From: an uncultured Rhodocyclaceae bacterium
GTDB taxonomy: Bacteria; Pseudomonadota; Gammaproteobacteria; Burkholderiales; Ga0077523
DNA length: 44,401 nt
Direction of reading: 5' to 3'
Assembly (NCBI GenBank): GCA_964510915.1
Contig: CAZEDA010000002.1
Span: 1 to 44,401 of the forward strand
In this document: piece by piece, positions 1,179 to 20,232 of the stretch
Numbering within the stretch: position 1 is the first letter of the stretch
Layout of the letters: each line of letters starts with the position of its first letter
Translations under genes and position numbers: made by a program
The notes under the pieces: generated by a model
Seen by the model: only the letters and a program-made list of their open reading frames with translations
What the model was told of the DNA's origin: nothing
Database searches by the model: none

Positions 1179-1296
1179 CGAGCCTTGTCGTGCGCGGCGG
1201 TCTGCCGTATCTGCATGCAGTTTGGGTTTTCCGGGGGTCTTCGGCGGTGGATTTCTGGTATCTTCGAATGATTACCAGGGGTTTGCGGGAGACAAG
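1179..1296 (+). promoter_or_regulatory. Intergenic leader, candidate promoter for the rSAM/kinase/E1 operon
   Basis: 118-bp gap with locally lower GC. There is an extended -10-like TGGTATCTT at 1256..1264 and a GGGAGA Shine-Dalgarno-like element just upstream of the ATG at 1297. I found no convincing -35. Confidence 0.2.
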
Positions 1297-2802
1297 ATGC
1301 CGAAAGCATCGATCGATGTGCTGATGGTCAATCCGGGCAGCCGGACAGCCGTCTACCAGAAGCTGGGAGACACCTTTTCCGCCATCGAGCCGCCGTCACT
1401 GGCCGGCCTGTTCGCCGAATACCTCCGCCGCAAGGGCATGTCGGTCGCGATCATCGACGCGCCCGCCCACAATCTGAGTCCCGAGGACGTCGCGCGCAGC
1501 GTGCGGGAGGATTTCGACCCCGCGCTCATCGTCATGGTCGTCTACGGCTTCCAGCCTTCCGCGTCCACGCAGAACATGCCTGCCGCCGGTGAGACATGCC
1601 GGGCCATCAAGGCGCTCGATCCCGGATACCGGATCATGATGACCGGCACCCATCCGGCGGCCCTCCCGGAAAGAACGATGCGGGAGGAGGACATCGACTA
1701 CGTGTGCGACCGCGAAGGGCCGGAGACGATCCTCGCGACAGTCCAGGCCATCAAGCAGCGCGCCACCGATCTCACGCACATTCCCAGCCTCTGGTACCGG
1801 CAGGACGGCGCCATCCGCTCCAACGCGCCCGGTCCCCTCATGGACGATCTCGACAACGAGATGCCCGGTGTGGCCTGGGACCTGCTGCCGATGGAGAAGT
1901 ACCGCGCCCACAACTGGCACTGCTTCGAGCACATCGACCAGCGCAGCCCGTACGTGTCGATGCATACCAGCCTCGGCTGTCCTTACAAGTGCACCTTCTG
2001 CTGCATCAACGCGCCCTTCGGCAAGCCTTCGTATCGCATGTGGTCCCCGGACAGTGTCATCCGCGAGATCGACATCCTCGTCAACAAGTACGGCGTCAAG
2101 AACATCAAGTTCGTCGACGAGATGTTCGTGCTCAACAAGGCTCACGTCATCGGCATCTGCGATCGCATCATCGAGCGCGGCTACGACCTCAACATCTGGG
2201 CATACGCCCGGGTCGACACGGTGAAGGACGAATTCCTCGACAAGCTGAACCGCGCCGGCTTCCGCTGGCTGGCGCTCGGCATCGAATCCGGCAGCAAGCA
2301 CGTGCGGGATGGCGTCGAGAAGGGACGATTCGGTTCGGCAGAGATCATCCAGGTGGTCCGCAAGATCCAGGATGCCGGAATGAACGTGATCGGCAACTAC
2401 ATCTTCGGCCTGCCGGACGACACCTACGAGTCCATGGAGGACACGCTCAACCTCGCCATCGAGGCCAACTGCGAGTTCGCGAACTTCTACTGCGCCATGG
2501 CGTACCCGGGCTCCAAGCTCTACGGTCTTGCCGAGGCCAACGGGTGGGATCTGCCACCGACCTGGATCGGGTACTCACAGCACAGCTACGAGTGCTTCCC
2601 GCTGCGGACGGACGCTCTCACGAACGCGCAGGTGCTCAAGTTCCGGGACGAGGCCTTCCATCGCTATTTCACGAATCAGCGCTATCTGGATCTCGTGGAG
2701 AAGAAGTTCGGCCCGAAGGTCCTCGCCCATGTTCGCGAGATGACCGCGATCAAGCTGCGGCGCCAGCTCTACGCCGAGGATGCCCTGGCCGTACCCGCCT
2801 GA
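1297..2802 (+). CDS. B12-binding (class B) radical SAM enzyme
   Basis: The ATG at 1297 (MPKASIDVLMVNPG) is preceded by GGGAGA. The N-terminal Rossmann-like cobalamin-binding region (VAIIDAP...IVMVVYGFQPS) is followed by the radical SAM cluster motif CPYKCTFC (CxxxCxxC). The 5' part of track ORF 1039..2802 overlaps the upstream gene and has junk composition. Confidence 0.9.
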   Translation: MPKASIDVLMVNPGSRTAVYQKLGDTFSAIEPPSLAGLFAEYLRRKGMSVAIIDAPAHNLSPEDVARSVREDFDPALIVMVVYGFQPSASTQNMPAAGETCRAIKALDPGYRIMMTGTHPAALPERTMREEDIDYVCDREGPETILATVQAIKQRATDLTHIPSLWYRQDGAIRSNAPGPLMDDLDNEMPGVAWDLLPMEKYRAHNWHCFEHIDQRSPYVSMHTSLGCPYKCTFCCINAPFGKPSYRMWSPDSVIREIDILVNKYGVKNIKFVDEMFVLNKAHVIGICDRIIERGYDLNIWAYARVDTVKDEFLDKLNRAGFRWLALGIESGSKHVRDGVEKGRFGSAEIIQVVRKIQDAGMNVIGNYIFGLPDDTYESMEDTLNLAIEANCEFANFYCAMAYPGSKLYGLAEANGWDLPPTWIGYSQHSYECFPLRTDALTNAQVLKFRDEAFHRYFTNQRYLDLVEKKFGPKVLAHVREMTAIKLRRQLYAEDALAVPA

Positions 2803-2859
2803 TCGCACAGCGGTACGGGTGCGCATCGGACTGAACAACCGGTTGCAGGTAGCTGAACG

Positions 2860-3855
2860 TTGATCATCACAAGAACACCCTTTCGAATCTCCTTCTTCGG
2901 CGGCGGAACCGACTATCCCGCGTGGTACAGGAACAACGGCGGGGCCGTGCTTGCGACGACGATCGACAAGTACTGCTATGTGTCCTGCCGCTACCTGCCG
3001 CCGTTCTTCGAGCACAAGCACCGCATCGTCTACTCGAAGATCGAGAACGTGCAGTCGGTCGACGAGATCGTCCACCCGGCGGTCCGCGCGATCCTCGCGG
3101 ACATGGGGCCCGACCGCGGGCTGGAGATCCACCACGATGGCGACCTGCCTGCGCGTTCCGGCCTCGGTTCGAGTTCCTCGTTCACCGTCGGGCTCGTCCA
3201 CACGCTGATGGCACTGCAGGGCAAGTACGCCTCGAAGGATTTCCTTGCCGCGCAGGCCATCCGCCTCGAACAGGACGTGATGAAGGAGCATGTCGGCTCG
3301 CAGGACCAGGTGTCCGCGGCCTACGGCGGGTTCAACATCATCGAGTTCACACGGGACGATCACTTCATCGTGAGCCCGATGATCCTGCCGCGGGGGCGCA
3401 CCGAAGAACTCCAGAGCCATCTGATGCTGTTCTTCACCGGGTTGTCCCGGTTCGCGTCGGACGTCGCGAAGTCCAAGATCGACAACTTTGGCAAGAAGGA
3501 AAAGGAGCTCACCCGCATGGGGGAGATGGTGACGGAAGCCATCATGATCCTTCAGGGCCAGCAGAGCTCCGTGCTCGAGTTCGGGCAGCTGCTCGCCGAA
3601 GCCTGGGAGTACAAGCGCTCGCTGTCGGACAAGGTGTCCACGCCCGAGATCGACGAGATCTACACGGCGGGCCGCCGCGCCGGCGCCATTGGCGGAAAGC
3701 TGCTCGGCGCGGGCGGCGGGGGATTCCTGCTGCTGTTCGCCAAGCCGGAGGACCAGCCTGCAGTACGCGCTGCGCTGAAGAACCTGGTGCACGTGCCTTT
3801 CCGGTTCGAGAACGCCGGCAGCCGGGTCGTGCTTTACCAGCCGAACGGCCTCTGA
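2860..3855 (+). CDS. GHMP-family sugar kinase (COG2605 type; HddA/WcbL-like D-glycero-alpha-D-manno-heptose 7-phosphate kinase candidate)
   Basis: TTG start. The N-terminus MIITRTPFRISFFGGGTDYPAWY is characteristic of this kinase family. It carries the GHMP motif II LPARSGLGSSSSF and the C-terminal GKLLGAGGGGFLLLF. Confidence 0.9.
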   Translation: MIITRTPFRISFFGGGTDYPAWYRNNGGAVLATTIDKYCYVSCRYLPPFFEHKHRIVYSKIENVQSVDEIVHPAVRAILADMGPDRGLEIHHDGDLPARSGLGSSSSFTVGLVHTLMALQGKYASKDFLAAQAIRLEQDVMKEHVGSQDQVSAAYGGFNIIEFTRDDHFIVSPMILPRGRTEELQSHLMLFFTGLSRFASDVAKSKIDNFGKKEKELTRMGEMVTEAIMILQGQQSSVLEFGQLLAEAWEYKRSLSDKVSTPEIDEIYTAGRRAGAIGGKLLGAGGGGFLLLFAKPEDQPAVRAALKNLVHVPFRFENAGSRVVLYQPNGL

Positions 3856-3905
3856 GCCTCGGCGACATCCCACCAGTCACGGTTCGATCGTTCAGGGAGC
3901 ATCGA

Positions 3906-4931
3906 TTGATTCGCTATACGTACGAGGGACGCGGTTTCCAGGACTGGACCGCACGCCCGCTGCCGCTGGAACCCGACGGCCTGAGGGCGCTGCTTCGGGA
4001 CATGGTCCGCATCCGCGTGATCGAGGAAGAGATCGAGAAGCGCTATCACCAGGACCAGATGAAGACGCCGATCCATCTCGTCATCGGTCAGGAGGCGACC
4101 GCGGTGGGGTTCTGCGCGGCACTCACGCGAGAGGATCTGCTCTACAGCGGGCACCGCACTCACGGGGCCTATCTCGCCAAGGGCGGCAGTCTGGAATCGA
4201 TGCTGTGCGAGATGCATTGCCGGATCAATGGCTGCGCCGGGTCGCGTGGCGGCTCGATGCATCTCATCGACAAGAGCGTCGGGATGGTCGGCACGTCCGC
4301 CATCGTCGGTGGAGCGGTGCCCATCACGGCAGGCGCGGCGCTGTCCCTCAAGATGCGCAAGTCCGACCGCGTGGCTGCGGTGTTCCTCGGTGACGCCACC
4401 ACGGAAGAAGGCGTGGTTTCGGAAACGCTCAACTTTGCCGCGCTGAAGCGCCTGCCGATGATCTTCTTCTGCGAGAACAATTTCTACTCGGTGCAGTCGC
4501 CGCTCGTCACTCGTCAGCCCGGCCGTGATCTCACCCGCTGGGCGGCGGGGCACGATGTCGCCAGCGTGAAGGTCGACGGTACCAATGTTCTGGCCGTATA
4601 CGAAGCCGCCGTGCAGGCGGTCGAACGCGCGCGATCCGGCGGTGGCCCCACCTTCATCGAGGCCCGCGTGTACCGCTACCGGGCGCATGGCGGATCGGGC
4701 GACGACAGCAAGACGGGCTACCGGGATCTCGAGGAAGTGGCGCACTGGCAGAAGGTGGATCCGATCGACACCTACACGGATTTCCTGCTGGGCAAGGGGC
4801 TCATCGATGGCAGTACGCGGGAGCAGATGGCGGCGGCGGCACTGATCGAGACCGAGCGCGCCTTCGAGATGGCGCTCGCCAGCCCGAACCCCGAAGAGAA
4901 GGATCTCTACACCCATGTCTACAGCGACTGA
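3906..4931 (+). CDS. Thiamine-diphosphate-dependent dehydrogenase/transketolase-like E1 component, alpha subunit
   Basis: ThDP-binding motif GDATTEEGVVSETLNFAALKRLPMIFFCENN (GDG..NN type), plus IHLVIGQEATAVG and SRGGSMHL. The proposed TTG start at 3906 has GGGAG 7 nt upstream. The track ORF 2922..4931 is a run-on through the kinase gene. The start codon remains uncertain; an internal ATG (MVRIRV) is the alternative. Confidence 0.85.
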   Translation: MIRYTYEGRGFQDWTARPLPLEPDGLRALLRDMVRIRVIEEEIEKRYHQDQMKTPIHLVIGQEATAVGFCAALTREDLLYSGHRTHGAYLAKGGSLESMLCEMHCRINGCAGSRGGSMHLIDKSVGMVGTSAIVGGAVPITAGAALSLKMRKSDRVAAVFLGDATTEEGVVSETLNFAALKRLPMIFFCENNFYSVQSPLVTRQPGRDLTRWAAGHDVASVKVDGTNVLAVYEAAVQAVERARSGGGPTFIEARVYRYRAHGGSGDDSKTGYRDLEEVAHWQKVDPIDTYTDFLLGKGLIDGSTREQMAAAALIETERAFEMALASPNPEEKDLYTHVYSD

Positions 4932-4945
4932 TAAGGGGCCTTGCC

Positions 4946-5983
4946 ATGCCGTGGGATGAAGGACTCGTCAATTCGCTCGTGTATGAAGGCCCCGATCCCT
5001 CCGAGGGACGGGTATTGAGCTACGTGAAGGCCGTGAACGAGTCGCTGTCCCTGGCGCTGGAACACGACCCCGGCGTATTCGTGCTGGGACAGGGCGTAGA
5101 CGACCCGAGTGCGATGTTCGGCTGCACGCGCGGACTCCAGGAAGTCTTCGGACCCGAACGGGTGTTCGATACCCCCGTGGCCGAGGAGTCCATGATGGGG
5201 ATGTGCACCGGCGCTGCGATGAACGGCATGCGCCCGGTCTACATGCACAACCGCCCCGATTTCATCCTGCTCGCGTTCAACCAGCTCGTGACCCATGCGT
5301 CCAAGTTCCACTTCATGGACAACGGCCAGACGACTGTGCCGATGGTCGTCTGGGCGGCGATCGGTCGAGGCTGGGGGTCCGGCGCCCAGCATTCCCAGGC
5401 CATCCAGGGGCTGCTCATGGGCGTTCCCGGTCTCAAGATCGTGATGCCCAGCACGCCGGCAGATGCGAAGGGACTCCTGCTGTCTGCCATCGCCGACAAC
5501 AATCCCGTGCTGTTCTTCGAGCATCGCTGGCTCATGAAGAAGGATGGCATTGTGCCGGAGGGCTTCTATCAGGTGCCGCTCGGCAAGGGCGTTTACCGGC
5601 GGCGCGGCAAGGACCTGACCGTGGTCGGCGCCTCCCACGCCATCGAGCTGGCGGGGCAGGCGGCCACCCAGCTTGCGAAGGAAGGCATCGATGTCGAAGT
5701 TATCGACCTTCGCACGCTGAAGCCGCTCGACGAAGCGATCATCGAGGAATCCCTAAGTAAAACTGGACGTCTCGTGGTCGTGGATACGGGCTGGGCGATG
5801 GGCGGCGTCTGTGCCGAGATCGGCTGCCTGGCCGCGGAGAAGTGGTTCCACCTGCTGAAGGCGCCGATCCGCCGCATCGGGTTGCCGGATATCCCGACCC
5901 CGGCGGGGTTCACGCTGGAGCAGTTCTACTACCCGAGCGTCGATCGGATGGCGAGCACGATGCGCGAGGCCGCTGGCCGCTGA
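4946..5983 (+). CDS. E1 component beta subunit (transketolase-like pyrimidine-binding plus C-terminal domains)
   Basis: Typical E1-beta sequence: VFVLGQGVDDP, FDTPVAEESMMGMCTGAAMNGMRPV, NPVLFFEHRWL, EGIDVEVIDLRTLKPLD. It starts 15 nt after the alpha-subunit stop. Confidence 0.9.
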   Translation: MPWDEGLVNSLVYEGPDPSEGRVLSYVKAVNESLSLALEHDPGVFVLGQGVDDPSAMFGCTRGLQEVFGPERVFDTPVAEESMMGMCTGAAMNGMRPVYMHNRPDFILLAFNQLVTHASKFHFMDNGQTTVPMVVWAAIGRGWGSGAQHSQAIQGLLMGVPGLKIVMPSTPADAKGLLLSAIADNNPVLFFEHRWLMKKDGIVPEGFYQVPLGKGVYRRRGKDLTVVGASHAIELAGQAATQLAKEGIDVEVIDLRTLKPLDEAIIEESLSKTGRLVVVDTGWAMGGVCAEIGCLAAEKWFHLLKAPIRRIGLPDIPTPAGFTLEQFYYPSVDRMASTMREAAGR

Positions 5984-7048: not shown

Positions 7049-7753
7049 TCATTTCCAGCAGATCACTTCGCGAATGAACTGGAAGTAGTAGGCGGCCCCC
7101 CACTTCAATACCTGGAGTTTTCGCGTGCCTCCGATTCGCGGGGGCTCGTCGCCAGGAATCTCGGCAATCTTCAGCTTTCGCTTGGCTGCGCGTACGGACA
7201 GGAGAGGCTCCCAGCTGATCTTCGTACGGAACAACCGTTCGGCCGTGACGTAACCTTCGTCCCTGTCCAGTTCGAGCTCGTGCACAAGACTCTTCCGGTA
7301 CGCGCGGAAGATGACCATGGCGTCCGTGTAGCGGCCGCCATGCAGGAAATTCACCGTTCGAGTGAAGAGCCAGTTCCCGAAGCCGGTCACGAAGCTGTCA
7401 TCGGTGCTCTTTGCACCATCGAGGTACCGCGAGGCAATGACCATGTCGAATCCCTCGGCCATCTTGCCGATCAGATCGGGAATGAGTGCGGCGATCGAAT
7501 TGCCGTCCGGGCTGAACGTGATGATCACGTCTCCGATGACCAGCGGCATCACCTCCGTGTACGCATGCCGGAATCCGCGCTGTTTCTGTACATACACCTC
7601 GTAGCCGTTCTCACGGGACCACTCGATGGTACCGTCGGTCGAGCCGCCGTCGACGACGATGATCTGATCGCACCAGTTTCTGTCGACCTGGGGCATGATG
7701 GCCCGCATGCCGTCGATCTCGTTCAGTGTCATGACCAGCAAGGTGGTTCGCAT
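7049..7753 (-). CDS. GT2 glycosyltransferase of the polyprenyl-phosphate sugar synthase type (DPM1/GtrB/ArnC-like)
   Basis: MRTTLLVMTLNEIDGM...IIVVDGGSTDGTIEW...ITFSPDGN...VIASRY...RAYRK...EIPGDEPPRIGG. This architecture and size are typical of Und-P/Dol-P sugar synthases. The longer track ORF to 7864 adds a low-complexity N-extension. Confidence 0.8.
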   Translation of the reverse strand: MRTTLLVMTLNEIDGMRAIMPQVDRNWCDQIIVVDGGSTDGTIEWSRENGYEVYVQKQRGFRHAYTEVMPLVIGDVIITFSPDGNSIAALIPDLIGKMAEGFDMVIASRYLDGAKSTDDSFVTGFGNWLFTRTVNFLHGGRYTDAMVIFRAYRKSLVHELELDRDEGYVTAERLFRTKISWEPLLSVRAAKRKLKIAEIPGDEPPRIGGTRKLQVLKWGAAYYFQFIREVICWK

Positions 7754-7918
7754 GGGTTGGCTGATATCGGTCTGGTTGGTAACGGTTCGCCATTCTTGAA
7801 AGCGGCCCCTTGGAATGCCTGCCGTTGGGGCCGGTCGTTCCCGGAAAGGCGGGAGTGATTGCACAGCAGGGGATCGGCCAGCGGCGACTGGCAGGCCTTT
7901 CTGAATCGGAGCAAAGGC

Positions 7919-8701
7919 TCATTTCGCCAGATATCTTCGGAGCACCGGCCTCCCGAGCACGAGCAAAGTGATGATGGCCGAGGCGGTCATGACATTCACG
8001 AACAGGTCTCTCGCCTCCCCGGTCAGGACTACACTTCCCACGGAGGCGCCGATGGCGGACACGAAGAGGGCGGGCGGTGCGACGAACAGAGCTGTGGCCC
8101 AGGTGTACTGCCAGAGGCCGATCGTGCAGATGCCGAAGAACCAGTTCAGAGGGCCGAAAGGCAGCACAGGATTGATCCTGGCGAAGGCGACGGCTTTCCA
8201 TCCGGTCCGCGAGATCTCCTCGCTCAGCCAGTCCCATGCCTTTCCCCGCAGGGCACGCTGGACATGCTCCCTCAGCAGATGCCTTCCGCAGTTGAACGCA
8301 ATCAGCGCGCCGAGCGTTCCCCCCAGGACCGTATAGACCGTACCCATGCCGATGCCCCACAGGAACCCGGCGGCCAGATTCATCGGCAGTGTCGGTACCA
8401 TGGTCAGGACCATCAAGGCATACACGGCCACGAATATGATCGGGGCGGCCGTCGGATGTTGTTCGAGCAGTCGGACAAGGTGTGTCGGATCCAGCCAGCC
8501 CACATGTTTCGCCCATAGAACACTTGCGAGCGTCGCCGCGAGCATCAGAGCGAGCCAGAAGCGCTTCCGACCCAGAATGCTGGCGAGAAAGCGGAACTCA
8601 GCCTTGGCTCTCTGCATGGACTTTCCGTCATCCTCCGCATGCGACCCGGCTGGATCTGGTTCGGAAGGCGGAGGCCCGAGCGATTCGAGTTCACGCTTCA
8701 T
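7919..8701 (-). CDS. TVP38/TMEM64 (DedA-superfamily, SNARE-associated domain) integral membrane protein
   Basis: Several hydrophobic helices, and a core FLWGIGMGTVYTVLGGTLGALIAFNCGRHLLRE...RINPVLPFGPLNWFFG typical of TVP38/TMEM64. The start is uncertain: ATG 8701 (MKRELESL) or ATG 8617 (MQRAKAEF). The extension to 8836 looks non-coding. Confidence 0.8.
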   Translation of the reverse strand: MKRELESLGPPPSEPDPAGSHAEDDGKSMQRAKAEFRFLASILGRKRFWLALMLAATLASVLWAKHVGWLDPTHLVRLLEQHPTAAPIIFVAVYALMVLTMVPTLPMNLAAGFLWGIGMGTVYTVLGGTLGALIAFNCGRHLLREHVQRALRGKAWDWLSEEISRTGWKAVAFARINPVLPFGPLNWFFGICTIGLWQYTWATALFVAPPALFVSAIGASVGSVVLTGEARDLFVNVMTASAIITLLVLGRPVLRRYLAK

Positions 8702-8822
8702 TCGCACTCGCCCGTGTGGACAGGGCCAAGGGGAACCGCCTTGAGGGGTTCGCCTGCCCGACAGGCAAAGCGAGAATGCGCAACATCGGCCAATACCAGG
8801 AGATCCGAACTCGGTCGCGCGA

Positions 8823-10499
8823 TCATCTTGCGCCAAACCAGCGACGTATGGCGCGCAGCGGCGCGGTCAACTGCCAGGAATGGGAGGAACGAATCTGCGC
8901 CAATTGCGCGCGCAGGTCCTCCACAAGGGCGTTGGAGGCGGCCAGCGTGCCCGCTCTGTCCGTGATCTCCTGGCGCAGCGCATCGATTTCGCGCTTCCGC
9001 AAGTCGACCTCGGTGGCAAGTCGGCGGTGCTCTGCGTCCACCGTGGCCAGGCGCTCCCGAAGATCCGCCTGCCGGGAGTGCTCCCGCGTGAGCTCGTCGC
9101 GAAGCGTGGCAACGTCACGATGGCTATCGGCAGCACGAACGTCTGCGGCGTCCCGCGCAACTCGCTCCCGATCAAGTGCTTCATCCAGCCGCGTGATCAC
9201 ACTCGCATCGTGCAGATGCCTCTGGTGAGCGGACGAGAGATCGCTTTCCAATGCCGCGATTCGTCTGTCCTTGGCGACGCTTTCCGAGGCGAGATTCGAC
9301 AGAGTGTCTTCGAGACGAGACTCGACTTTGCGCAGTTCCAGGTCTCGGCTGGCGAGTGAACCCTCCAGCGTTTCGATTCGTGCCAGCAACTCGCCGATCG
9401 GGCGGGTCGCCTCGGTGGCATGTCGGTTGGCCTCCACGACATCCGAAGCCAGGCGTTCGAGACCGGATTCCAGTCCGCCCAGTTTCGCGACGGTCTGTCT
9501 CGATACCTCCAGGTCGGCGTCCGCACGCGTCCGCAGAGCGTCCTGGTCTTCCTTCAGTCGGTAGAACAGCGCGCGGACTGCACTCGGCGGAAACAGAAAG
9601 TCGGTACTGATCGGGACGGGTAGCGCATCCGGCCCCCTCGCCGGTTCAGCGGATGTTCGTGGGGGAAAACTCAGCGGACCGGAGTCAGCCGGTGCAGAGA
9701 GAGTCTCGAGGCACTCCTGGAAGGAGTGCGCATCCTGTTCGGCCAGAGGCCGAGCGGCCAGAGCCTGAAGAGCCTCGAACAACGATCGGGTGCGCTCGTC
9801 CAGCGTGCCTTCGAACCGCTGGCGAATGAGGGAGGCATCCGGAAATGTCTGATCGAGCTTTGCACCGATCACACCTTCCAGTTGGACGTGGGTTTCTTTC
9901 CGAAGCAGCAGTTCCTGGGAGACGAAACAAAGGCGCTGCCCTCTGGCCCCCAGATTCAGCAGGCGCAGGTGCACGTTTCGCCAAGCTTCGTACAGGTCTG
10001 CAACACTCAGCCGGAGGTCGGCGAGATACTGTGCGCTCTGGGTTTCCTTCAGGATGCTGCTGATCACGCTGCCGGGGTCCCGGAACACGCAGATCGCGAC
10101 TGCGTCGGGCACCGCAGCGCTCCACGCTTCCAGGGTGAAGCTGAAGCGCGGGTCCTTGAAGGCAAACGGTCGGCGTTTCGTCAGGGCTTCGATGGATCTG
10201 CGGTCGTCTTCCGTCGCCGCACATGGCAGCTGGGCTGGCAGTCTGGCCAGCCAGAATTGTCCGGGCCGATAGTAGGCATCCATGAAGCCGGCCGCCTCCG
10301 GGCCGAACGCCTGGCGTACCGACGCAAGGATGATCCGCTCGTTCAGGGAATTGATGGCCCAGTTCTCGAAGAACCCCTTGGGATTCGCATCGCGCGGCGG
10401 ATAAAGGTCATCCCCCTGAAAGTAGCCTGCTCCCGCGAACATGCCTGCGAGCATGCTGGTGCCGCTGCGGCCCGAACCGCAAATGAAGACATCTCTCAT
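8823..10499 (-). CDS. Sulfotransferase-domain protein with a long C-terminal coiled coil
   Basis: The N-terminus MRDVFICGSGRSGTSMLAGMF is a PAPS 5'-phosphosulfate-binding P-loop. From roughly residue 320 to 535 the sequence is heptad-like and rich in Leu/Glu/Arg/Asp/Ala (LERLASDVVEANRHATEATRPIGELLARIETLEGSLASRDLELRKVESRLEDTL...). It ends in the tail IRSSHSWQLTAPLRAIRRWFGAR. Confidence 0.85.
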   Translation of the reverse strand: MRDVFICGSGRSGTSMLAGMFAGAGYFQGDDLYPPRDANPKGFFENWAINSLNERIILASVRQAFGPEAAGFMDAYYRPGQFWLARLPAQLPCAATEDDRRSIEALTKRRPFAFKDPRFSFTLEAWSAAVPDAVAICVFRDPGSVISSILKETQSAQYLADLRLSVADLYEAWRNVHLRLLNLGARGQRLCFVSQELLLRKETHVQLEGVIGAKLDQTFPDASLIRQRFEGTLDERTRSLFEALQALAARPLAEQDAHSFQECLETLSAPADSGPLSFPPRTSAEPARGPDALPVPISTDFLFPPSAVRALFYRLKEDQDALRTRADADLEVSRQTVAKLGGLESGLERLASDVVEANRHATEATRPIGELLARIETLEGSLASRDLELRKVESRLEDTLSNLASESVAKDRRIAALESDLSSAHQRHLHDASVITRLDEALDRERVARDAADVRAADSHRDVATLRDELTREHSRQADLRERLATVDAEHRRLATEVDLRKREIDALRQEITDRAGTLAASNALVEDLRAQLAQIRSSHSWQLTAPLRAIRRWFGAR

Positions 10500-10566
10500 G
10501 TGTGGTGGCCCCGGTGGCGTCCTGAGACGAACGCCTTGCCAGCGAGGTTGCCGTGTGAAAGCTTGT

Positions 10567-11559
10567 TCATTTCTTGTCGTCGATCCGTCGACGGGTGCCG
10601 GTGGCCTCGATGCGAGCCTCGCTCATTTTCGTGACGACCCCGCGCATCGCGGTCTGAGCTTTCCAGTTCAGAAGGGCGAGCGTCCGCGAAGGATTGCCGC
10701 AACTCCAGGCGATATCGGCCGGCCGATACTGAGAGCGATCCGTGTCGACGTGGTCCCTCCAGTCCAGTCCATGGAGCGCGAACGCCGCTTCCACGAAGTC
10801 CGCGAGCGAGTGGGCCTCCCCCGTGGCGACGATGTAGTCGTCTGGAGACTCCTGCTGAAGCATTCGCCACATGGCATCCACATACTCGGGAGCCCAACCC
10901 CAATCCCGCACCACGTCCAGGCGCCCGAGTGTGAGGCGTTCGCCGGACCCCTGGGCAATCCTGACGGCCGCCGAAACGATCTTCTGTGTCACGAACCGCT
11001 CCGGCCGGAACGCGGACTCATGATTGAAGAGGATCCCGTTGCATCCGAACAGCCCATAGGCCTCCCGGTAGTTCGCCACCAGCCAGTGGGCGGAAGCTTT
11101 CGCTACCGCATAGGGGCTCCGTGGTCGAAACGGCGTCAGTTCCGTTGCCGGGGTCCCGTCGAGTTCTCCGAAACACTCGCTGGAACTGGCGTGATACAGA
11201 CGGACCGGGCGGTCCAGAAACCGGATCGCTTCGAGCAGATTCAGTGTCCCGGACGCTATGCTCTCGAGAGTTTCGACGGGCTGCTCGAAAGAAAGTCCGA
11301 CGGAGCTTTGCGCCGCCAGGAAATACACTTCGTCAGCCTGACTGCGGTTCAGCGCGGAGAGCACGCTGCGGAAATCACTGGCCGCCATCGAAATGAGTTC
11401 GATGCGGTCGCGAATGCCGAGCTTCACCAGAGAGGAGAACAGCGAGATCTGCGCATCGCGGGAAGTACCCCAGACGCGGTATCCCTTCTCGAGAAGCAAC
11501 TCGGCCAGAAAGGCGCCGTCCTGGCCGCCTACGCCGCAAATCAGCGCTGTCTTGCGCAT
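10567..11559 (-). CDS. gmd: GDP-sugar 4,6-dehydratase (Gmd family; GDP-mannose or GDP-D-glycero-D-manno-heptose 4,6-dehydratase)
   Basis: MRKTALICGVGGQDGAFLAELLLEKGYRVWG, SSECFG, SPYAVAKASAHW (YxxxK) and GILFNHESAFRPERFVTQKI are all Gmd hallmarks. An alternative ATG lies at 11571. Confidence 0.9.
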   Translation of the reverse strand: MRKTALICGVGGQDGAFLAELLLEKGYRVWGTSRDAQISLFSSLVKLGIRDRIELISMAASDFRSVLSALNRSQADEVYFLAAQSSVGLSFEQPVETLESIASGTLNLLEAIRFLDRPVRLYHASSSECFGELDGTPATELTPFRPRSPYAVAKASAHWLVANYREAYGLFGCNGILFNHESAFRPERFVTQKIVSAAVRIAQGSGERLTLGRLDVVRDWGWAPEYVDAMWRMLQQESPDDYIVATGEAHSLADFVEAAFALHGLDWRDHVDTDRSQYRPADIAWSCGNPSRTLALLNWKAQTAMRGVVTKMSEARIEATGTRRRIDDKK

Positions 11560-11560
11560 G

Positions 11561-11905
11561 TCAGTCGTCATGTTCGAGAAGCTTCATGCCGCGTAACCGA
11601 ACGGCGGGAAAATCTGCGGGCCGTATCGGCTCCTCTGCAAAGGCGAAGCCCGGAATCGGTGCTTGCTTGCCCATCGGCGGCAACCTGTGGTCCGAAGGCC
11701 TGAAGATGCCCACGGGCGGAACTGGACTCCCCGCATCAATGATTCTCGCGGGACGATCGGCGCAAGATCCGCAATCCCGGTTCACCCGGTTGTACAAGAC
11801 GCCGTCGTGCCCCGATCTTTGCCCGAGCCTGAGTGTGACCTTGCATGACACCACGATCCCCTGCCCGATCGCTCCGAGTGTATGCGCGAAATAGTAGCCC
11901 ATCAT
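11561..11905 (-). CDS. Hypothetical small protein (114 aa), uncertain
   Basis: It fills the gap between the methyltransferase and gmd. Its TGA stop lies 1 nt upstream of the gmd ATG at 11559. Third-position GC is fairly high. No clear Shine-Dalgarno. There is a weak by-eye resemblance of YYFAHT...VSCKVT...GHDGVLYN to the C-terminal strands of RmlC-type 3,5-epimerases, so it could be a remnant. Confidence 0.3.
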   Translation of the reverse strand: MMGYYFAHTLGAIGQGIVVSCKVTLRLGQRSGHDGVLYNRVNRDCGSCADRPARIIDAGSPVPPVGIFRPSDHRLPPMGKQAPIPGFAFAEEPIRPADFPAVRLRGMKLLEHDD

Positions 11906-11966
11906 GGACGTGCCAGTGCAGCGAAGAACACGTCAGGGGTGACGCCCCGCAGCCGAGATGAGGTCG

Positions 11967-13055
11967 TCATCGCCTGACCAGGAGCATCTGTCCCGACGCC
12001 ATGTGGATCGGCACGAACGCCGGTCCGGCCGGCGAGCGCAGGAACTCGACCAGAGCCAGATAGGCGCCCGCGAGCGCGGGCGTGTGCCCCTGGTCCTCGA
12101 CGACCAGAACGCCGCCCGGGACGACCCGCGGCGCGAGTTTCTGCAAGGCTGCCAGAACCGCCTCGTACAGGTCGACATCGATGTTGGCGACGGCGACGGC
12201 ACCGATGGTGTCTGGCAGTTCGTCCTCGATGATGTCGAGTCTGTGAATTCTGTAGCCGTCCAATTCGCCGAGGAAACGGCGCAGGTCCCGTTCACTGGTA
12301 TCCGCATGGGTACCGAGCCAGAGCCCGTCCGGGCTTTCACGTGCGCCGTCGAAGTTGAAGCCCTCGAACACGTCCACGAGGTGGGTGGTGCGTCGAATGC
12401 CGGAGGCTTGCATGTAGTGCATGGCCGTCCTTGCACTGCGCCCCCGGTAGACGCCGATCTCGACATAGTCGCCGGAAAGCCGGGCTGTGATGTCGATGGC
12501 CTGAATCAGATTCTCGAAGTCCGCCACTTCGAACTTCTGTTCCGGCAGAGCGGCTTCGTGCAGCAGGACGGCGCGAGCCAGATCGTTCCGATGGAAGTAG
12601 CGCGCCGTCGGGTAGAAGCGGCTCGCCCCGTAAAAGAAGGCCTGAGGCTGGCGGCGTACCAGTGCCAGCACCTCCACGAGTTTCTGGTCCGACTCGAAGG
12701 CACACACAAAGGCCCTCGGGCTATCGCTGGGGGCGAGGTCTGCGAGCTCGGATTCGGACAGCAGAATCGTGTCATCCGGATGGCCGAGTCGATCTCCCGC
12801 GTCGGTAAGCAAGTAGACCGGAGCATCCGGAAAACGCGCCCGGGCTGCCGCGATTGCGCGCGAGACTTCCTCCCGGCTGAACCTCGGTAGGCTCAGGTTC
12901 GAGTGGAAGTAGAAGTGGCGCATTGCTTCGTCTTGCAGCCCGAAGCGCTCGACCAGATGGTGCAAGAGCGCCCTTGCCTGGTCTCGCGAGAGATCGGCGG
13001 TCGCGGCCAGGATCTCTGGAGGGAACGGATTTGCGGGCGACGGGGTGGGGTTCAT
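11967..13055 (-). CDS. Class I SAM-dependent O-methyltransferase (TylF/MycF-like)
   Basis: The C-terminal half GDYVEIGVYRGRSARTAMHY...ANIDVDLYEAVLAALQKLAPRVVPGGVLVVEDQGH matches the TylF/Methyltransf_24 pattern, including the metal-binding D..D.D region. Its ATG overlaps the upstream stop (ATGA at 13053-13057). Confidence 0.85.
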   Translation of the reverse strand: MNPTPSPANPFPPEILAATADLSRDQARALLHHLVERFGLQDEAMRHFYFHSNLSLPRFSREEVSRAIAAARARFPDAPVYLLTDAGDRLGHPDDTILLSESELADLAPSDSPRAFVCAFESDQKLVEVLALVRRQPQAFFYGASRFYPTARYFHRNDLARAVLLHEAALPEQKFEVADFENLIQAIDITARLSGDYVEIGVYRGRSARTAMHYMQASGIRRTTHLVDVFEGFNFDGARESPDGLWLGTHADTSERDLRRFLGELDGYRIHRLDIIEDELPDTIGAVAVANIDVDLYEAVLAALQKLAPRVVPGGVLVVEDQGHTPALAGAYLALVEFLRSPAGPAFVPIHMASGQMLLVRR

Positions 13056-13870
13056 CAGTCGCCGCCGGAGTCATCGGCGGTTCTCTCCGGAACCGGCCCG
13101 AATCCGCTGCGCGGATCGCGTCGGGAGAACTGCTCGTGAAACGGCCGATTGCCTCGCTCGGTCGTGAACCCGCGACCCTCGCGATCGTGCCTCACGCACA
13201 AGCGCCCCCCTCCTACGACCAGCGTGGCATACCCCTTGTGGTAGTTCCTCAGGTTGAGCCCGGCGGTCTGGAATGTCGAGATCGGATACTCGTCGGTGTC
13301 GTAGCCCTTCAGCACCGAAAGCCAGTGCGTTGTAGGCGCGCAGCGGAAGCAACTGTTGGTGCCGCCGGCCATGAGGGGAGGAACCCTGGCGGTGTCCGCC
13401 ATCAAGTGCGGCCCGCCATCGACCGCGACGAGGTTGTGCAAGTACTCGTCTCCCCAGCAGTAGGGGCATGTGGTGAACATGCCGAAGCGGAGCCCGGTCG
13501 CGGAGGGCTTGCCATAGTAGGTCTGCATCGCCTGGATCAGTTGGGGAATCGTGTCGTCGGCGTACCCGTGATCGTCCTCCAGCATGCACAGATAGGTGGG
13601 CGCGTGGAGTTCCAGTGCGAGCCACAGGCCGAGATTGCGGGCGAGGCCCATGGAGATGGGGTCGGTGTGCGCAAGGAAGAAAGATTTGCCTCGCCCGAGT
13701 TCTGCCAGCAGAGCCCCCATCGCCGCGCGGTTCCGAACGCTCGAATCGACCACGACCACGGCGGCACCCGATCGCTCCGAGGCGCGAAGAACCGTGGGCA
13801 GCATCTTTCCCACCGTCTCGACGTCTTCGAAACAGCAGTAGACCGTGGCGAACTCCGAAGGAACATGCAT
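13055..13870 (-). CDS. GT-A-like glycosyltransferase-family protein (unassigned family)
   Basis: Rossmann-like N-terminus ATVYCCFEDVETVGKMLPTVL...AAVVVVDSSV with an acidic LEDDHGY motif. It is translationally coupled on both sides. Coding-like composition. I recognised no closer family. Confidence 0.65.
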   Translation of the reverse strand: MHVPSEFATVYCCFEDVETVGKMLPTVLRASERSGAAVVVVDSSVRNRAAMGALLAELGRGKSFFLAHTDPISMGLARNLGLWLALELHAPTYLCMLEDDHGYADDTIPQLIQAMQTYYGKPSATGLRFGMFTTCPYCWGDEYLHNLVAVDGGPHLMADTARVPPLMAGGTNSCFRCAPTTHWLSVLKGYDTDEYPISTFQTAGLNLRNYHKGYATLVVGGGRLCVRHDREGRGFTTERGNRPFHEQFSRRDPRSGFGPVPERTADDSGGD

Positions 13871-13873
13871 GCG

Positions 13874-14911
13874 CTAGTCTCCGATGGCGTCGGCTACGTC
13901 CGCCAGCCATGCCTCTACCAGGACCAGTTCGTCCGATGGGAAGAACCCTTCGGAGCACAGGCGCCGGTAGCAATGGAGCAGGGCCTCTCCGACTGTGAAT
14001 TCCTCGAGCCTGACCGAGTCGAGCGCGTCGGTGAAGTCTTCAGCGCGCAGGTAGGCGTCCAGTTCCTGTCGGAAATCATCGAGGAGATCGTGGGGATGGC
14101 GCACCTGTTCGACTGTGGCCGTCGTGAAGAGAAGGTGCCAGCCCTTCGAACCGGTGATCCGCTGGGCAACAAGGCCCCGCCAGATGTCCGTCAGCCGGAA
14201 GCTGCAGTTGGCGGGAAGATACATGAGCGCGAAGGCGTCCGGCCACCACGCCGTGTTCTGACTGTTGATCGGGCATCGCGCACCCGGTGCGAGTGCCACC
14301 GGAGGATGATCCGCAAACACGAAGCGCCCACCGTGGACGAGCCGATGAATGGCATCGACATCGGGATCTCCATTGGCCAGTCCCTGCTGGATCGGGCAAT
14401 AGACCGGTTCGAGCGTATTCGAGAGGAAGGGCTGGTCATCTCGTATGTGTCGCAGAGGAAAGCCTCGCGGCCAGATCGGCGAGTCGCTGAACGAGCGATA
14501 GACGTTGAACCATCCTTTCTCCCGAACCAGCCGTGCCGGGACCGTGTGGTTTCCGGGTGCGAAGAAACCCTCCAGCGGCGCGTTGTCATCGTCGGTTTCG
14601 ACGATACGGTCCGGTCGAGACGCCATGGCTTCCAGATAGCCGAGGTTCTTGCGGGCGTAGTGGTTTCGCGGCAGCTTCGTCGCCAGTCGCCAGCGGGAAC
14701 CCTCCTGGTCGGCGAGGCTCAGGTACGAGGCGGCCTCGAGGCGAAAATCGGAAGGGGTCTTCGCGTCGCCGACGATCCAGGCCTTCCAGTCAGCGGCTCG
14801 CACGCCGCGCATGGTCTCTTCGAGCGCCTTCGTGGGCGCATGCACAGTGGTCACGACGAGCGCGGTCTGGCCTGCGGAGGCCTGCCTGGGCCCTGATCTA
14901 GGCGCTCGCAT
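13874..14911 (-). CDS. STELLO-like (DUF288-type) glycosyltransferase-family protein
   Basis: ALVVTTVHAPTKALE...WKAWIVGDAKTPSDF...SYLSLADQ...NHYARKNLGYLEAMASRPDRIVETDDDN follows the conserved STELLO pattern (V.GD.KTP..W, YLS...Q, Y.RKN.GYL.A, DDDN). The ATG at 14911 overlaps the wzt stop by 14 nt. The track ORF runs on to 15007. Confidence 0.75.
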   Translation of the reverse strand: MRAPRSGPRQASAGQTALVVTTVHAPTKALEETMRGVRAADWKAWIVGDAKTPSDFRLEAASYLSLADQEGSRWRLATKLPRNHYARKNLGYLEAMASRPDRIVETDDDNAPLEGFFAPGNHTVPARLVREKGWFNVYRSFSDSPIWPRGFPLRHIRDDQPFLSNTLEPVYCPIQQGLANGDPDVDAIHRLVHGGRFVFADHPPVALAPGARCPINSQNTAWWPDAFALMYLPANCSFRLTDIWRGLVAQRITGSKGWHLLFTTATVEQVRHPHDLLDDFRQELDAYLRAEDFTDALDSVRLEEFTVGEALLHCYRRLCSEGFFPSDELVLVEAWLADVADAIGD

Positions 14912-16295
14912 GGGATCGTTCGTGGTCTGTACGATGGTCAGTCGCCGGGCGCAAGGCGAGTGTCGCGGGCCCTCCGGAGGCGTCGAAATAGCCGAACGAC
15001 ACGTCATGCTCCACCGGGAGAACTCGAAACATCGTGCGGTCGAGGACGCGATGCAGGCATTCCGGCTCGTGATCGGACCAGATGCCGCCGCCTACGAAAT
15101 AGGCTCCCGGCAACAGATCGAGCTTGAAGTCGAAGACCACCTCGAATTCCGTGTCAGAGCCAACTTCCGCGATGGAGAGCCCCGTGCCCGGATGGCGTTG
15201 GCCGGTGATGCCATGGCCGCTCCCGAGGCGGATATGGATGCCGAAGTGAACCGCTCGGCAGGGCTTCAGAAACCGCCCGCGACTGACGAACTGGTACCTT
15301 TGTCCGCGCTGCAGGACATTCACCGTCCTGCCGGAAAGGTCCCGAATCAGGATGTCCGTGATCTCGGCACCCTGCGATTCGTAGATCACCGTGGATTCCG
15401 GCGCCAGCGACGGATCGAACCAGGCCGCTTGTGCTTGGGTGGCGGGTTCTTCGCTCCCGCCAGTTTCGGGGATCGGATCCGATGTCTCGACCCGTTCGCG
15501 GGCATCCGCAAGGCGGAAGGATCTGATGCTTTCCAGGACCTCCTGCTGCTGGCTGGGTGGCGTGTAGATCAGCTTCTGGTAGGCCTGAATCGCATTCAGC
15601 GGAATGCCTGAATAGATCAGCTCGCCGCCGTGAAGAACATGCGCGGTATCGCACCAGTCGATGATGTGCTGCGCCACATGCGATACCAGGATGATGGCGG
15701 TGCCGCGTTGCTTGAGGGCTTCCATGCGCGCGAAGCACTTTCTCTGGAAGCGTTCGTCTCCGACGGCCAGCGCCTCGTCAACCACGAGTACGTCAGGATC
15801 TATGCAGGCCTGTACGGCAAATGCCAACCGAACGAACATTCCACTCGAATAGCTGCGCACCGGCTGGTCGATGAACTCGCCAATGTCGGCGAACTCCTCG
15901 ATCCTCGGAAACACGGCGTCAGTCTCGGCACGCGACAAACCCAGGATGGCGGCGTTCAGGTAGGCGTTCTCTCGCCCGGTGAACTCGGGATTGAATCCGG
16001 CGCCCAGTTCGAGCAGCGCGGCAAGGCGTCCATGGACCTGTACCGAGCCCTGGGTCGGGGACATCGTGCCGCAAATGATCTGAAGGAGCGTCGACTTCCC
16101 GGCGCCGTTGCAGCCGATGATCCCGACCGTCTCTCCTTTTCGAATCTCGAGGGAGACATCCCGCAATGCCCAGTACTCGCGGTACTTGGGCGACCTGCCG
16201 AAACCGAGCAGCTGAGCGAGGCGTGCGTAGGGGCCGTCGAACACGTGGAAGCATTTCCCCACGCCGTCCACACGAATCGCGAGTTCAGAGGACAT
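14898..16295 (-). CDS. wzt: Polysaccharide ABC transporter ATP-binding protein Wzt with an extended C-terminal domain
   Basis: Walker A GCNGAGKST, signature YSSGM, Walker B LVVDEALAVGD. At 465 aa it has about 200 residues beyond the NBD, with a beta-rich sequence (VIYESQGAEITDILIRDLSGRTVNVLQRGQRYQF...FEVVFDFKLDLLPGAYFVGGGIW) of the kind seen in Wzt C-terminal glycan-binding domains. Confidence 0.9.
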   Translation of the reverse strand: MSSELAIRVDGVGKCFHVFDGPYARLAQLLGFGRSPKYREYWALRDVSLEIRKGETVGIIGCNGAGKSTLLQIICGTMSPTQGSVQVHGRLAALLELGAGFNPEFTGRENAYLNAAILGLSRAETDAVFPRIEEFADIGEFIDQPVRSYSSGMFVRLAFAVQACIDPDVLVVDEALAVGDERFQRKCFARMEALKQRGTAIILVSHVAQHIIDWCDTAHVLHGGELIYSGIPLNAIQAYQKLIYTPPSQQQEVLESIRSFRLADARERVETSDPIPETGGSEEPATQAQAAWFDPSLAPESTVIYESQGAEITDILIRDLSGRTVNVLQRGQRYQFVSRGRFLKPCRAVHFGIHIRLGSGHGITGQRHPGTGLSIAEVGSDTEFEVVFDFKLDLLPGAYFVGGGIWSDHEPECLHRVLDRTMFRVLPVEHDVSFGYFDASGGPATLALRPATDHRTDHERSHASA

Positions 16296-17073
16296 CGGAG
16301 AACCCTTTTCGAGTCTTCTCGAACCACATGAAGCCGAGCCTGGCCACGACCACGCTTACCACGGCGTACATGAACAACCGTGCCCACGCGGGTTGGTTCC
16401 CGACCAGGGCAACGTCTCGCACCTGTTCAATGATGAAGGTGAGCGGGTTCAGAAACAGCAGAGGACGGATCTCCTTCGGCAAGACGGATGCAGGATAGAA
16501 GATCGGACTCAGAAACAGGAGGATCGTGGTGAGAATGCCTACGATTTGCCCCACATCCCTGACAAACGTGCCGACCGAAGCCAGGAACCATGCAGCACCA
16601 ACGGTGAGCACCACCAGGGGAGCGATGACGATCGGCAAGTAGAGGGCGGTCCACGGCAGGTGTCCCCGGACCAGAAGGGAGGCGAGGAGCAGCACTGCGA
16701 AGCTGATCGCAGTGTGTATCAGCGCGGCGCCCATGGTCACCCAGGGCAGAACCTCTAGCGGGAAGACGACGCGCTTCACGTAGCTGGGATTGGCAACAAT
16801 CAGGGTCGGTGCTCTCGATACGCAGTCGGCGACCATGGAGTGCATGACCAGTCCGGCGAACAGAAACAGTGCAAAGTCTCCCGACGAGTCGGACTCCGGC
16901 GTCCATCGGGCCCGGAAGATGAAGCTGAAGACGAACGTGTAGATCGCCAGCATTACGAGCGGCAGCACGAAGGACCAGACGACGCCCAGGACGGAGCCAC
17001 GATAGCGTCCAACCACCTCTCGTCTGGTCATCTGCCAGACCAGGTATCGATGGCGCCAGAGCGAACTCAACAT
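16285..17073 (-). CDS. wzm: Polysaccharide ABC transporter permease (ABC-2 type) Wzm
   Basis: MLSSLWRHRYLVWQMTRREVVGRYRGSVLGVVWSF is the canonical ABC-2 N-terminus. There are six hydrophobic segments. It overlaps wzt by 11 nt. Confidence 0.9.
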   Translation of the reverse strand: MLSSLWRHRYLVWQMTRREVVGRYRGSVLGVVWSFVLPLVMLAIYTFVFSFIFRARWTPESDSSGDFALFLFAGLVMHSMVADCVSRAPTLIVANPSYVKRVVFPLEVLPWVTMGAALIHTAISFAVLLLASLLVRGHLPWTALYLPIVIAPLVVLTVGAAWFLASVGTFVRDVGQIVGILTTILLFLSPIFYPASVLPKEIRPLLFLNPLTFIIEQVRDVALVGNQPAWARLFMYAVVSVVVARLGFMWFEKTRKGFSDVL

Positions 17074-20096: not shown

Positions 20097-20232
20097 GTGA
20101 CGCTGTCTCGGCGGGGCGCGGTCAGAGGATTGCGAAGGTCGAGCCAAGTGACCGGGTTGCCGAAGGCGCCATGCTTCGGCAGATGCATGCTGAGGCCCAT
20201 CGGATGGCGACTGATGCCATTGCCAGGACGGC

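Follow-up and report, generated by a model that had tools for sequence, protein, structure and literature searches.

A terminator enzyme carried on a coiled-coil ruler is among the best-understood ways in which bacteria size their surface glycans. Wherever such a system has been characterised, a coiled-coil protein carries the terminator at its distal end (PMC11231755). WbdD of Escherichia coli O9a and O8 (Klebsiella O3 and O5) consists of a methyltransferase (residues 1-210), a kinase (211-459) and a coiled-coil C-terminal domain (460-708), forms a trimer and makes the O9a cap by two activities, kinase and methyltransferase (PMC3482155), while WbbB of Klebsiella O12 and Raoultella terrigena and ORF6 of K. 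pneumoniae O7 combine terminator, coiled coil and polymerase glycosyltransferases (GTs) in one chain (PMC11231755). The terminal groups so far described in the literature consulted are methyl, methyl-phosphate and 3-deoxy-D-manno-octulosonic acid (Kdo). Here we analyse a 44,401-nucleotide stretch of DNA from an uncultured Rhodocyclaceae bacterium (contig CAZEDA010000002.1; hereafter the window), in which a glycan cluster with the ABC transporter genes wzm and wzt also encodes a 558-residue protein with a 3'-phosphoadenosine 5'-phosphosulfate (PAPS) sulfotransferase head on a coiled-coil stalk. By analogy with the systems above, we lean towards reading this protein as a WbdD-like, non-homologous, sulfate-adding terminator of the Wzm/Wzt glycan pathway.

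The gene is an open reading frame (ORF) at 8823-10499 on the minus strand, with an ATG start and 558 codons plus stop (1677 nt). The N-terminus of the protein, MRDVFICGSGRSGTSML, agrees with the N-termini of its homologues, and its N-terminal sequence MRDVFICGSGRSGTS aligns with their start sites; the gene's third-position G+C of 0.71 is like that of the neighbouring genes, in a window whose G+C is 63-70%. An AlphaFold2 monomer model calculated from 61 homologues has a mean predicted local distance difference test (pLDDT) score of 80.5. For motif conservation we used an alignment of 16 sulfotransferase domains (A3) and an alignment of 61 relatives (A2), compared where possible with tyrosylprotein sulfotransferases (TPSTs). 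The protein is made up of four parts, namely a sulfotransferase head, a Pro-rich linker, a coiled coil and a 20-residue tail:

8823-10499, minus strand: whole gene of the sulfotransferase, coiled-coil and tail protein, 558 residues, defined by ORF, translation and homologues; stop codon at 8823-8825.
9696-10499, minus strand: sulfotransferase head, residues 1-268, defined by PF13469, AlphaFold2 pLDDT above 90, Foldseek and a profile match to TPST1.
10455-10478, minus strand: P-loop GSGRSGTS, residues 8-15, the 5'-phosphosulfate-binding motif; invariant in A3 and paired with the TPST P-loop GvpRSGTT.
10146-10157, minus strand: K115-D-P-R118 motif; invariant in A3, at least 90% conserved in A2 and paired with 'NKDP' of TPST1.
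10056-10082, minus strand: R140-x-P142...S148, the 3'-phosphate-binding motif (R-x7-S); conserved in A2 and A3 and paired with 'vRDgrasvhS' of TPST1.
9588-9695, minus strand: Pro-rich linker, residues 269-304, disordered in the model with pLDDT below 50 at residues 272-301; 10 prolines in residues 261-315.
8886-9587, minus strand: coiled-coil stalk, residues 305-538, defined by AlphaFold2 helices, 3.5-residue periodicity, constant register and weak SMC and ATG16 matches.
8826-8885, minus strand: conserved tail, residues 539-558, S-x-S-W-(R/Q)-x-T-x-P-L-R followed by basic and aromatic residues; found in 24 of 197 family representatives.

An earlier note, made from the letters of this DNA, had described a 558-residue ORF at 8823-10499 without giving its strand, and had divided the product into a PAPS-type P-loop sulfotransferase domain, an uninterrupted heptad helix of roughly 200 residues and a short basic and aromatic tail. 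The ORF is real and can now be placed on the minus strand. The head is upheld by a PF13469 match above cut-off, by the AlphaFold2 and Foldseek fold and by an intact P-loop, and the 3'-phosphate motif on which the note had wanted a check is conserved as R140-x7-S148. The note is right about the basic and aromatic character of the tail, SHSWQLTAPLRAIRRWFGAR, which is in addition a widespread conserved motif. The helix does have heptad character, as the model helices, the register and the periodicity all support, and its length was fairly estimated (~220-234 residues); 'uninterrupted' goes slightly too far, given one proline, two soft breaks and a register shift.

The head belongs to the PAPS sulfotransferase superfamily by every criterion of sequence and predicted fold tested. 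Pfam PF13469 (Sulfotransfer_3) covers residues 4-185 with E=1.3e-10 and 42.4 bits against a curated cut-off of 27. A Foldseek search of the PDB returned exclusively sulfotransferases at ranks 1-13 with probabilities of 0.99-1.00 (the CurM sulfotransferase domain, 3rnl, TPST1/2 and Stf1), with Stf0, Stf9 and NDST1 further down the list and P-loop kinases ranked lower. Its best E-value (6e-5) and target-side template-modelling scores (~0.46-0.49) are modest because the query was the whole 558-residue model, and identity is ~13-18%. A profile of the 16 head domains matched TPST1 (E=3e-6) and Stf9 (3.6e-4) as well as tick TPST and the CurM sulfotransferase domain. Among the 61 relatives S148 is invariant and N39, G42, F43, E45, K115, D116, P117, R118, R140 and P142 are at least 90% conserved, R140 and P142 being invariant among the 16 domains. 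Candidates for the catalytic base are E45, an invariant residue within NPKGFFE, and K115; the region of the TPST catalytic Glu falls outside the profile alignment. A syntenic locus (L003) also includes an adenosine 5'-phosphosulfate (APS) kinase gene. The fold, P-loop, K-D-P and R-x7-S motifs are those of the characterised PF13469/TPST-like enzymes (human TPST1/2, the CurM domain, mycobacterial Stf0, Stf1 and Stf9), none of which, among those in our match lists, is described with a coiled-coil stalk or a link to a Wzm/Wzt exporter, and whose known acceptors (Tyr, polyketide, trehalose, glycopeptidolipid, Nod factor) differ from the glycan presumed here. NodH and LpsS of Sinorhizobium also belong among the characterised PAPS sulfotransferases. 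The head family is large: of 1.84 billion cluster representatives, 214 match at E<1e-30 and 3734 at E<1e-3.

Behind the linker the model places helices at residues 305-361, 366-456, 463-538 and 540-557, and hydrophobic 3.5-residue periodicity over residues 316-538 reaches a power of 96, against 10.7 +/- 10.2 in shuffled sequences (matched by 0 of 1000). The heptad register is unchanged from ~379 to 546, straight across the second soft break of the model. Because helices, periodicity and register agree, we conclude that the stalk is a real coiled coil of ~220-234 residues, kinked by a proline near 367 and shifting register near 379-399. Further irregularities are the GG pair at 343-344 and low-confidence segments at 362-365 and 457-462; P367 is the one proline of residues 316-538, which hold six glycines and draw just weak coiled-coil-type matches (ATG16, SMC) from Pfam. 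By a simple heptad score, no other of the 32 window proteins has a long coiled-coil segment. Where the linker meets the stalk, a segment conserved in the homologues P0002-P0005, PVPISTDFLFPPSAVRALFYRL (window 9557-9623, residues 293-314), is modelled with low confidence in its first part and might serve to dock the head or a partner.

Stalk length varies widely across the family. In the 20 representatives that have a head as well as the tail motif, ~26 to ~380 residues separate the end of the head from the motif; our protein, with 234, is among the longest. P0002, the nearest homologue, shares 84% identity with our protein where the two overlap. The one indel between them spans exactly 21 residues (three heptads) of EVxLRKG-like units within the coil; stalk length therefore shifts in register-preserving steps. 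The short-stalk relatives P0010 and P0014 (L008, 8001-9182) carry exact tandem repeats in the coil, for example AEARMRLAEEQQRAVNLEEVNGTLGGEL in two or three copies, which suggests that stalk length is evolving by repeat expansion.

The tail is a module that is not restricted to our protein. A slightly relaxed form of its motif, S-x-S-W-(R/Q/K)-x-T-x-P-x-R, recurs in 24 of the 197 family representatives, either 5-21 residues from the C-terminus or ahead of 425-500 further residues, and no Pfam model spans it in our protein, where the tail reads S-x-S-W-R-x-T-x-P-L-R. The tail has a hydrophobic moment of 0.40, a net charge of +3 and no transmembrane segment; as this moment is moderate and the invariant positions (S, S, T, P, R) are polar, specific docking seems no less probable a role for it than plain membrane binding. 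A metagenome search with a DNA pattern for W-R-L-T-A-P-L-R in high-GC codons matched at least 120 stretches. Among the matches listed (loci L092-L211), nearly all are in frame and preceded by S-x-S, whose serines were absent from the pattern, and most lie near the C-terminus, usually 10-25 residues from the end. Pfam assigns the 46 non-redundant complete motif proteins among these matches mostly to methyltransferase or glycosyltransferase families: ~10 class I S-adenosylmethionine (SAM) methyltransferases, 6 Methyltransf_24 and 3 FkbM proteins, GT2 variants, GT4 and one PIG-L deacetylase. In L183 a motif-bearing methyltransferase of 351 residues directly follows wzt in a wzm-wzt(Wzt_C) locus, in L131, L151 and L160 others lie close to wzm-wzt(Wzt_C), and in L094 a single protein adjoining wzm combines Methyltransf_24, a coil, the motif at residue 360 and two GT2 modules. 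By analogy with the published layout of terminator, ruler and polymerase, the tail motif is best seen as defining a modular class in which the sulfotransferase would occupy the terminator slot. A profile of the tail motif run against a set of 5.8 billion proteins was uninformative, returning only ~74-residue proteins, apparently since matches resembled the query in length. Those proteins (P0198-P0228, for example P0214, P0217 and P0218), from Thermoleophilaceae metagenome-assembled genomes and Bradyrhizobium, consist of a short coiled coil and the tail motif alone; the Bradyrhizobium protein P0218 (L091, 8001-8219) lies outside any glycan locus.

The gene lies inside a ~23-kb run of minus-strand genes, of which those nearest to it are:

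16285-17073, minus strand: Wzm, ABC-2 permease (PF01061, E=1.2e-23).
14898-16295, minus strand: long-form Wzt, an ABC ATPase (PF00005) with a C-terminal carbohydrate-binding domain (Wzt_C at ~14982-15383; PF14524, E=5e-20).
13874-15007, minus strand: STELLO-like glycosyltransferase (PF03385), in the same order in L008.
13055-13870, minus strand: gene of 271 residues and unknown family, placed by gene order after the STELLO-like gene.
11967-13055, minus strand: TylF-like O-methyltransferase (PF05711, PF13578), a rival cap-maker.
10567-11571, minus strand: GDP-mannose 4,6-dehydratase (gmd), immediately upstream of the sulfotransferase gene (PF16363, E=7e-102).
7919-8836, minus strand: VTT/DedA-family membrane protein with a TTG start (PF09335), which follows the sulfotransferase gene in L001, L003 and L008 as well.
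7049-7864, minus strand: GT2 resembling polyprenyl-phosphate hexose synthases (PF00535), with weak, sub-cut-off NCBIfam matches to AglJ and dolichyl-phosphate hexose transferase.

From the end of wzt (14898) to the start of the sulfotransferase gene (10499) there are 4.4 kb with four genes, all on one strand, and a 395-nt gap at 11572-11966. A scan for promoter and terminator consensus sequences between the two genes gave no signal above chance, so the sulfotransferase gene may plausibly be co-transcribed with wzm-wzt.

The association with the exporter recurs in six related loci. The orthologue stands immediately 3' of wzt in four of them: in L001 and L003 it directly follows gmd-wzm-wzt(Wzt_C) and is succeeded by VTT, GT2 and radical-SAM/GHMP/E1 genes as at the left end of the window, and in L007 (a 691-residue version) and L009 (375 residues) it comes directly after wzt. 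wbdD likewise follows wzm-wzt in E. coli O9a. L008, with a 393-residue version, repeats the order of the window (wzm-wzt-STELLO-methyltransferase-sulfotransferase-VTT-GT2), and L010 holds a sulfotransferase, coil, motif and GT4 fusion with a Wzt of related C-domain 3 kb away. Long-form Wzt thus accompanies the sulfotransferase/coiled-coil fusion in 7 of 7 close loci, the window included. Between the Wzt C-domain of the window and its six counterparts, identity is 40-58% (33-63% across all pairs; 57-85% for the ATPase domains), and motifs such as VHFGIHIR, GQRYP, PGxYFxGGGxW and CLHRxxD are shared, a sequence similarity consistent with a shared ligand. The nearest full-length relatives, P0003-P0005, one of them from a Betaproteobacteria metagenome-assembled genome, are 39-42% identical over 97% of the length, and a scan of GTDB genomes found just distant relatives (at most 44% identical). 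Among 80 distant family loci in species-representative genomes, 11 abut a long wzt, and in ~21 wzm/wzt lie on the same strand no more than 10 kb away, a raw count without a background rate.

Fusions among the relatives agree with this. P0055 (L005, 9531-11704) joins a partial Wzt ATPase, Wzt_C and the sulfotransferase in one polypeptide, and in P0009, P0068, P0071 and P0077 sulfotransferase, coil and motif are followed by 425-500 more residues, identified as GT4 by Pfam in P0009. P0055 occurs in two assemblies, possibly from one study, and in L005 an apparent frameshift splits its ATPase domain into overlapping calls (9531-10043 and 10001-11704). Methyltransferase-sulfotransferase fusions also occur (P0016-P0018, P0027); the fused methyltransferase domains of P0016 and P0027 were considered as orthologues of the window methyltransferases and rejected, as they have no significant similarity to them.

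Set beside WbdD, the protein shows the same succession of N-terminal catalytic head, extended coiled coil and short C-terminal non-catalytic region, with non-catalytic C-terminal parts of similar size (residues 460-708 in WbdD and 305-558 here; PMC3482155). The gene of each occurs with wzm and a wzt whose product bears a C-terminal binding domain, and each protein is the sole coiled-coil protein of its cluster. They differ in head chemistry, kinase/methyltransferase in WbdD as opposed to a PAPS sulfotransferase, and in the junction, the WbdD kinase running straight into the helix in the structure as described whereas a ~35-residue disordered linker intervenes here. A PDB sequence search with the whole protein (E<=10) returned neither WbdD nor WbbB, only weak generic coiled-coil matches with E>=0.26; a Pfam/NCBIfam scan of the protein found no kinase or methyltransferase domain, and Pfam, PDB sequence and fold searches found no GT99 Kdo-transferase domain. 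The claims of the earlier note about the system as a whole therefore fare unevenly. Its long-form Wzt is borne out by the Wzt_C match, and the survey it had called for finds sulfotransferase/coiled-coil fusions together with long-form Wzt in all seven loci above. Its placement of the gene 'in the wzm-wzt operon' is right as to strand and gene run and, with four genes and a 395-nt gap in between, plausible as to co-transcription. The 'same architecture' as WbdD applies to head, coiled coil, tail and cluster context and not to sequence, in which there is no similarity to WbdD or WbbB, nor to the junction, with its extra linker. Of the terminator reading itself, the computable parts (head, stalk, Wzt_C, sole coiled-coil protein, survey) stand, and the likeness to WbdD is architectural only.

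The WbbB-type order of terminator, ruler and polymerase is shared by the relatives P0009, P0068, P0071 and P0077 and by the L094 protein (PMC11231755), whereas our protein ends after the tail without GT modules, unlike WbbB and O7 ORF6, and its presumed sulfate would take the place of their beta-Kdo or methyl-phosphate. A parallel in gene position comes from the O-antigen cluster of Aeromonas salmonicida, which is also ABC-transporter-dependent and in which a sulfotransferase-domain 'Hyp' of 216 residues, of unassigned function, lies between wzt and wbbB (PMC4483657). Its gene directly adjoins wzt; unlike our protein it is short and stand-alone, has no coiled coil and shares its cluster with a separate WbbB-type protein (PMC4483657). 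Literature searches found no paper combining WbdD and sulfotransferase, nor did those on sulfate at the non-reducing terminus and Wzt turn up a sulfate cap; both are absences from one collection and not proof. The 'sulfotransferase' of a Burkholderia phage paper was set aside, being actually a PAPS reductase. The scheme of polymerase, terminator and ruler is known, and what appear to be new are a sulfotransferase in the terminator slot and a shared tail motif that marks the slot.

Our proposal starts from what is observed, namely the domain identities and motifs, the Wzt(Wzt_C) neighbourhood, the fusions, the variation of the stalk and a head position that equals that of methyltransferase heads; from these we infer acceptor position, termination, Wzt read-out and ruler effect. 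The glycan concerned is probably the lipopolysaccharide O-polysaccharide of a Gram-negative related to uncultured Betaproteobacteria. In the proposed mechanism, the coiled coil would oligomerise and the conserved tail would tether the stalk by its base to the membrane-bound polymerase complex, which would leave the head at the far end of the ~230-residue stalk, roughly 30 nm away if fully extended. An undecaprenyl-linked chain would then grow until its non-reducing end reached the head and received sulfate from PAPS on the terminal sugar. The sulfated end would no longer be extended and, alone or together with a methyl group from a neighbouring methyltransferase, could be the mark that the C-terminal domain of Wzt binds for export. 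More tentatively still, and with rather more doubt than assurance, we suggest that sulfate is an undescribed class of cap, that the sulfotransferase head rides on an interchangeable stalk-and-tail chassis, that a distinct Wzt_C subfamily reads its product and that the tail is a general docking tag. A sulfate cap, if true, would be new chemistry for a chain end, would predict a new class of ligand for Wzt binding domains, would put a permanent negative charge at the tip of the O-chain, with a bearing on phage, antibody and complement recognition, and would give glyco-engineers a one-enzyme means of end-labelling polysaccharides. The tail motif, for its part, offers an easy means of spotting terminator-type proteins by sequence in genomes not yet characterised.

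Several points weigh against a sulfate-adding terminator, whose support comes from sequence, predicted structure and gene context. The disordered linker of ~35 residues that AlphaFold2 predicts between head and stalk would blur a strict ruler, and a monomer model gives neither the oligomeric state nor the true length of the stalk. At least four methyltransferases are encoded in the cluster (11967-13055, 20233-21306, 21234-21899 and 38964-39668), any of which could make a methyl cap. The Wzt C-domains could resemble one another through common ancestry of the clusters and not through a common ligand, and wzm/wzt lie within 10 kb in about a quarter of the 80 distant family loci. In addition, ~75 of the 197 family representatives are stand-alone enzymes of ~250 residues without a stalk and others are fused directly to GT2, so that the family overall is not confined to a ruler-type role. 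No sulfate is reported in the A. salmonicida O-antigen, despite the wzt-adjacent sulfotransferase gene and with a WbbB homologue present (PMC4483657); adjacency to wzt alone is therefore no proof of sulfate termination. The stalkless and GT2-fused relatives would also suit an enzyme tethered by stalk and tail that sulfates sugars within the chain or their side groups, with termination and the export signal supplied by something else, for example a methyl group or a terminal sugar. The bacterial sulfated polysaccharides found in our literature searches all carry sulfate inside their repeat units, a conventional cap could come from the several methyltransferases that the clusters have in common, and a flexible linker would allow the head to sweep along the chain. 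We nevertheless consider in-chain sulfation, the main rival, less likely than termination, on the grounds that our protein is the sole coiled-coil protein of a Wzt_C cluster and its characterised counterparts all carry the terminator (PMC11231755), that the head occupies the slot of the methyltransferase heads in sister proteins with the same tail, that there is no obvious rationale for holding a modifier ~230 residues from the polymerase, and that the Wzt-Wzt_C fusion of P0055 better suits a step that licenses export.

The neighbouring methyltransferases allow a further variant, in which the coiled-coil protein is membrane scaffold and ruler, a separate, recruited methyltransferase makes the cap and sulfation is a second, dispensable decoration of the terminal residue or falls on another acceptor, for example the primer or adaptor region. 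The E. coli O9a cap, too, is the product of two activities, kinase and methyltransferase (PMC3482155), a TylF-like methyltransferase lies between wzt and our gene, as a Methyltransf_24 protein does in L008, and the methyltransferase-sulfotransferase fusions join both activities in one chain. Such a scaffold with an accessory head is nonetheless improbable in our judgement, as L001, L003, L007 and L009 have no methyltransferase between wzt and the orthologue, the methyltransferase domains of the fusions are dissimilar to those of the window, and the head, all of whose catalytic motifs are conserved, is not a degenerate scaffold domain. Least probable is a head that is no glycan sulfotransferase at all, such as a P-loop kinase-like enzyme with another donor or a protein tyrosine sulfotransferase of TPST/RaxST type. 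P-loop nucleotide kinases do appear lower in the Foldseek list, and the best profile matches among solved structures are tyrosylprotein sulfotransferases; against this, the R-x7-S 3'-phosphate motif is conserved and typical of PAPS enzymes, not kinases, the top structural matches are all sulfotransferases, and the contexts and fusion partners (Wzt, GT2, GT4, methyltransferase) all belong to glycan assembly. Weighing these together, we retain the sulfate-adding terminator as our preferred reading.

The remainder of the cluster may indicate what kind of chain is involved. Its upstream end runs from a DegT aminotransferase, a nucleotidyltransferase and an epimerase/reductase to two GT2s, one of them of 703 residues; the following features belong to this part, and L001 has the same gene set:

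18234-24055, minus strand: upstream part of the cluster, from Pfam and comparison with L001.
Within 18234-20300, minus strand: PMT_2/GT-C-like membrane protein of 688 residues (PMT_2 at 25.8 bits, just below the 26.1 cut-off).
20233-21306 and 21234-21899, minus strand: two methyltransferases, by Pfam.
21944-24055, minus strand: GT2 of 703 residues, by Pfam; at a guess, a candidate polymerase.

Downstream of the sulfotransferase gene come the VTT/DedA protein, whose ORF as listed overlaps the gene's 3' end by 14 nt, the GT2 resembling polyprenyl-phosphate hexose synthases and another GT2. The VTT/DedA protein and GT2 (window 7049-8836), together with the 688-residue PMT_2/GT-C-like protein, look like an extracytoplasmic sugar-addition system. 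The gmd-type gene (10567-11571) matches TIGR01472 with E=1.6e-94 and 316.9 bits, under that model's 415-bit cut-off. Gmd, a DegT/DnrJ-type aminotransferase (27557-29059, minus strand), which has an N-terminal extension of ~120 residues, and the epimerase/reductase (25873-26811) suggest a GDP-6-deoxy- or 4-amino-6-deoxy-hexose (perosamine-like) unit. The gap between gmd and the TylF-like methyltransferase contains an opposite-strand ORF of 102 residues (11586-11894), and at the equivalent place in L001 and L003 there are genes of 121-123 residues, again on the strand opposite to gmd.

At the left end of the window a divergent plus-strand set (51-5983) encodes an FAD/NAD oxidoreductase, a B12-binding radical SAM enzyme, a GHMP kinase and a transketolase-like E1 beta subunit; to judge from L001, an E1 alpha subunit is probably encoded at ~3900-4916, also on the plus strand. 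The radical-SAM/GHMP/E1 set is kept beside the glycan cluster in L001 and L003, the APS kinase gene of L003 being inserted within it, and may make an unusual sugar or substituent. Further along the window, a 950-residue protein (30469-33321, plus strand) has a MurJ-like flippase domain confined to residues 503-939, preceded by ~500 N-terminal residues without a Pfam match.

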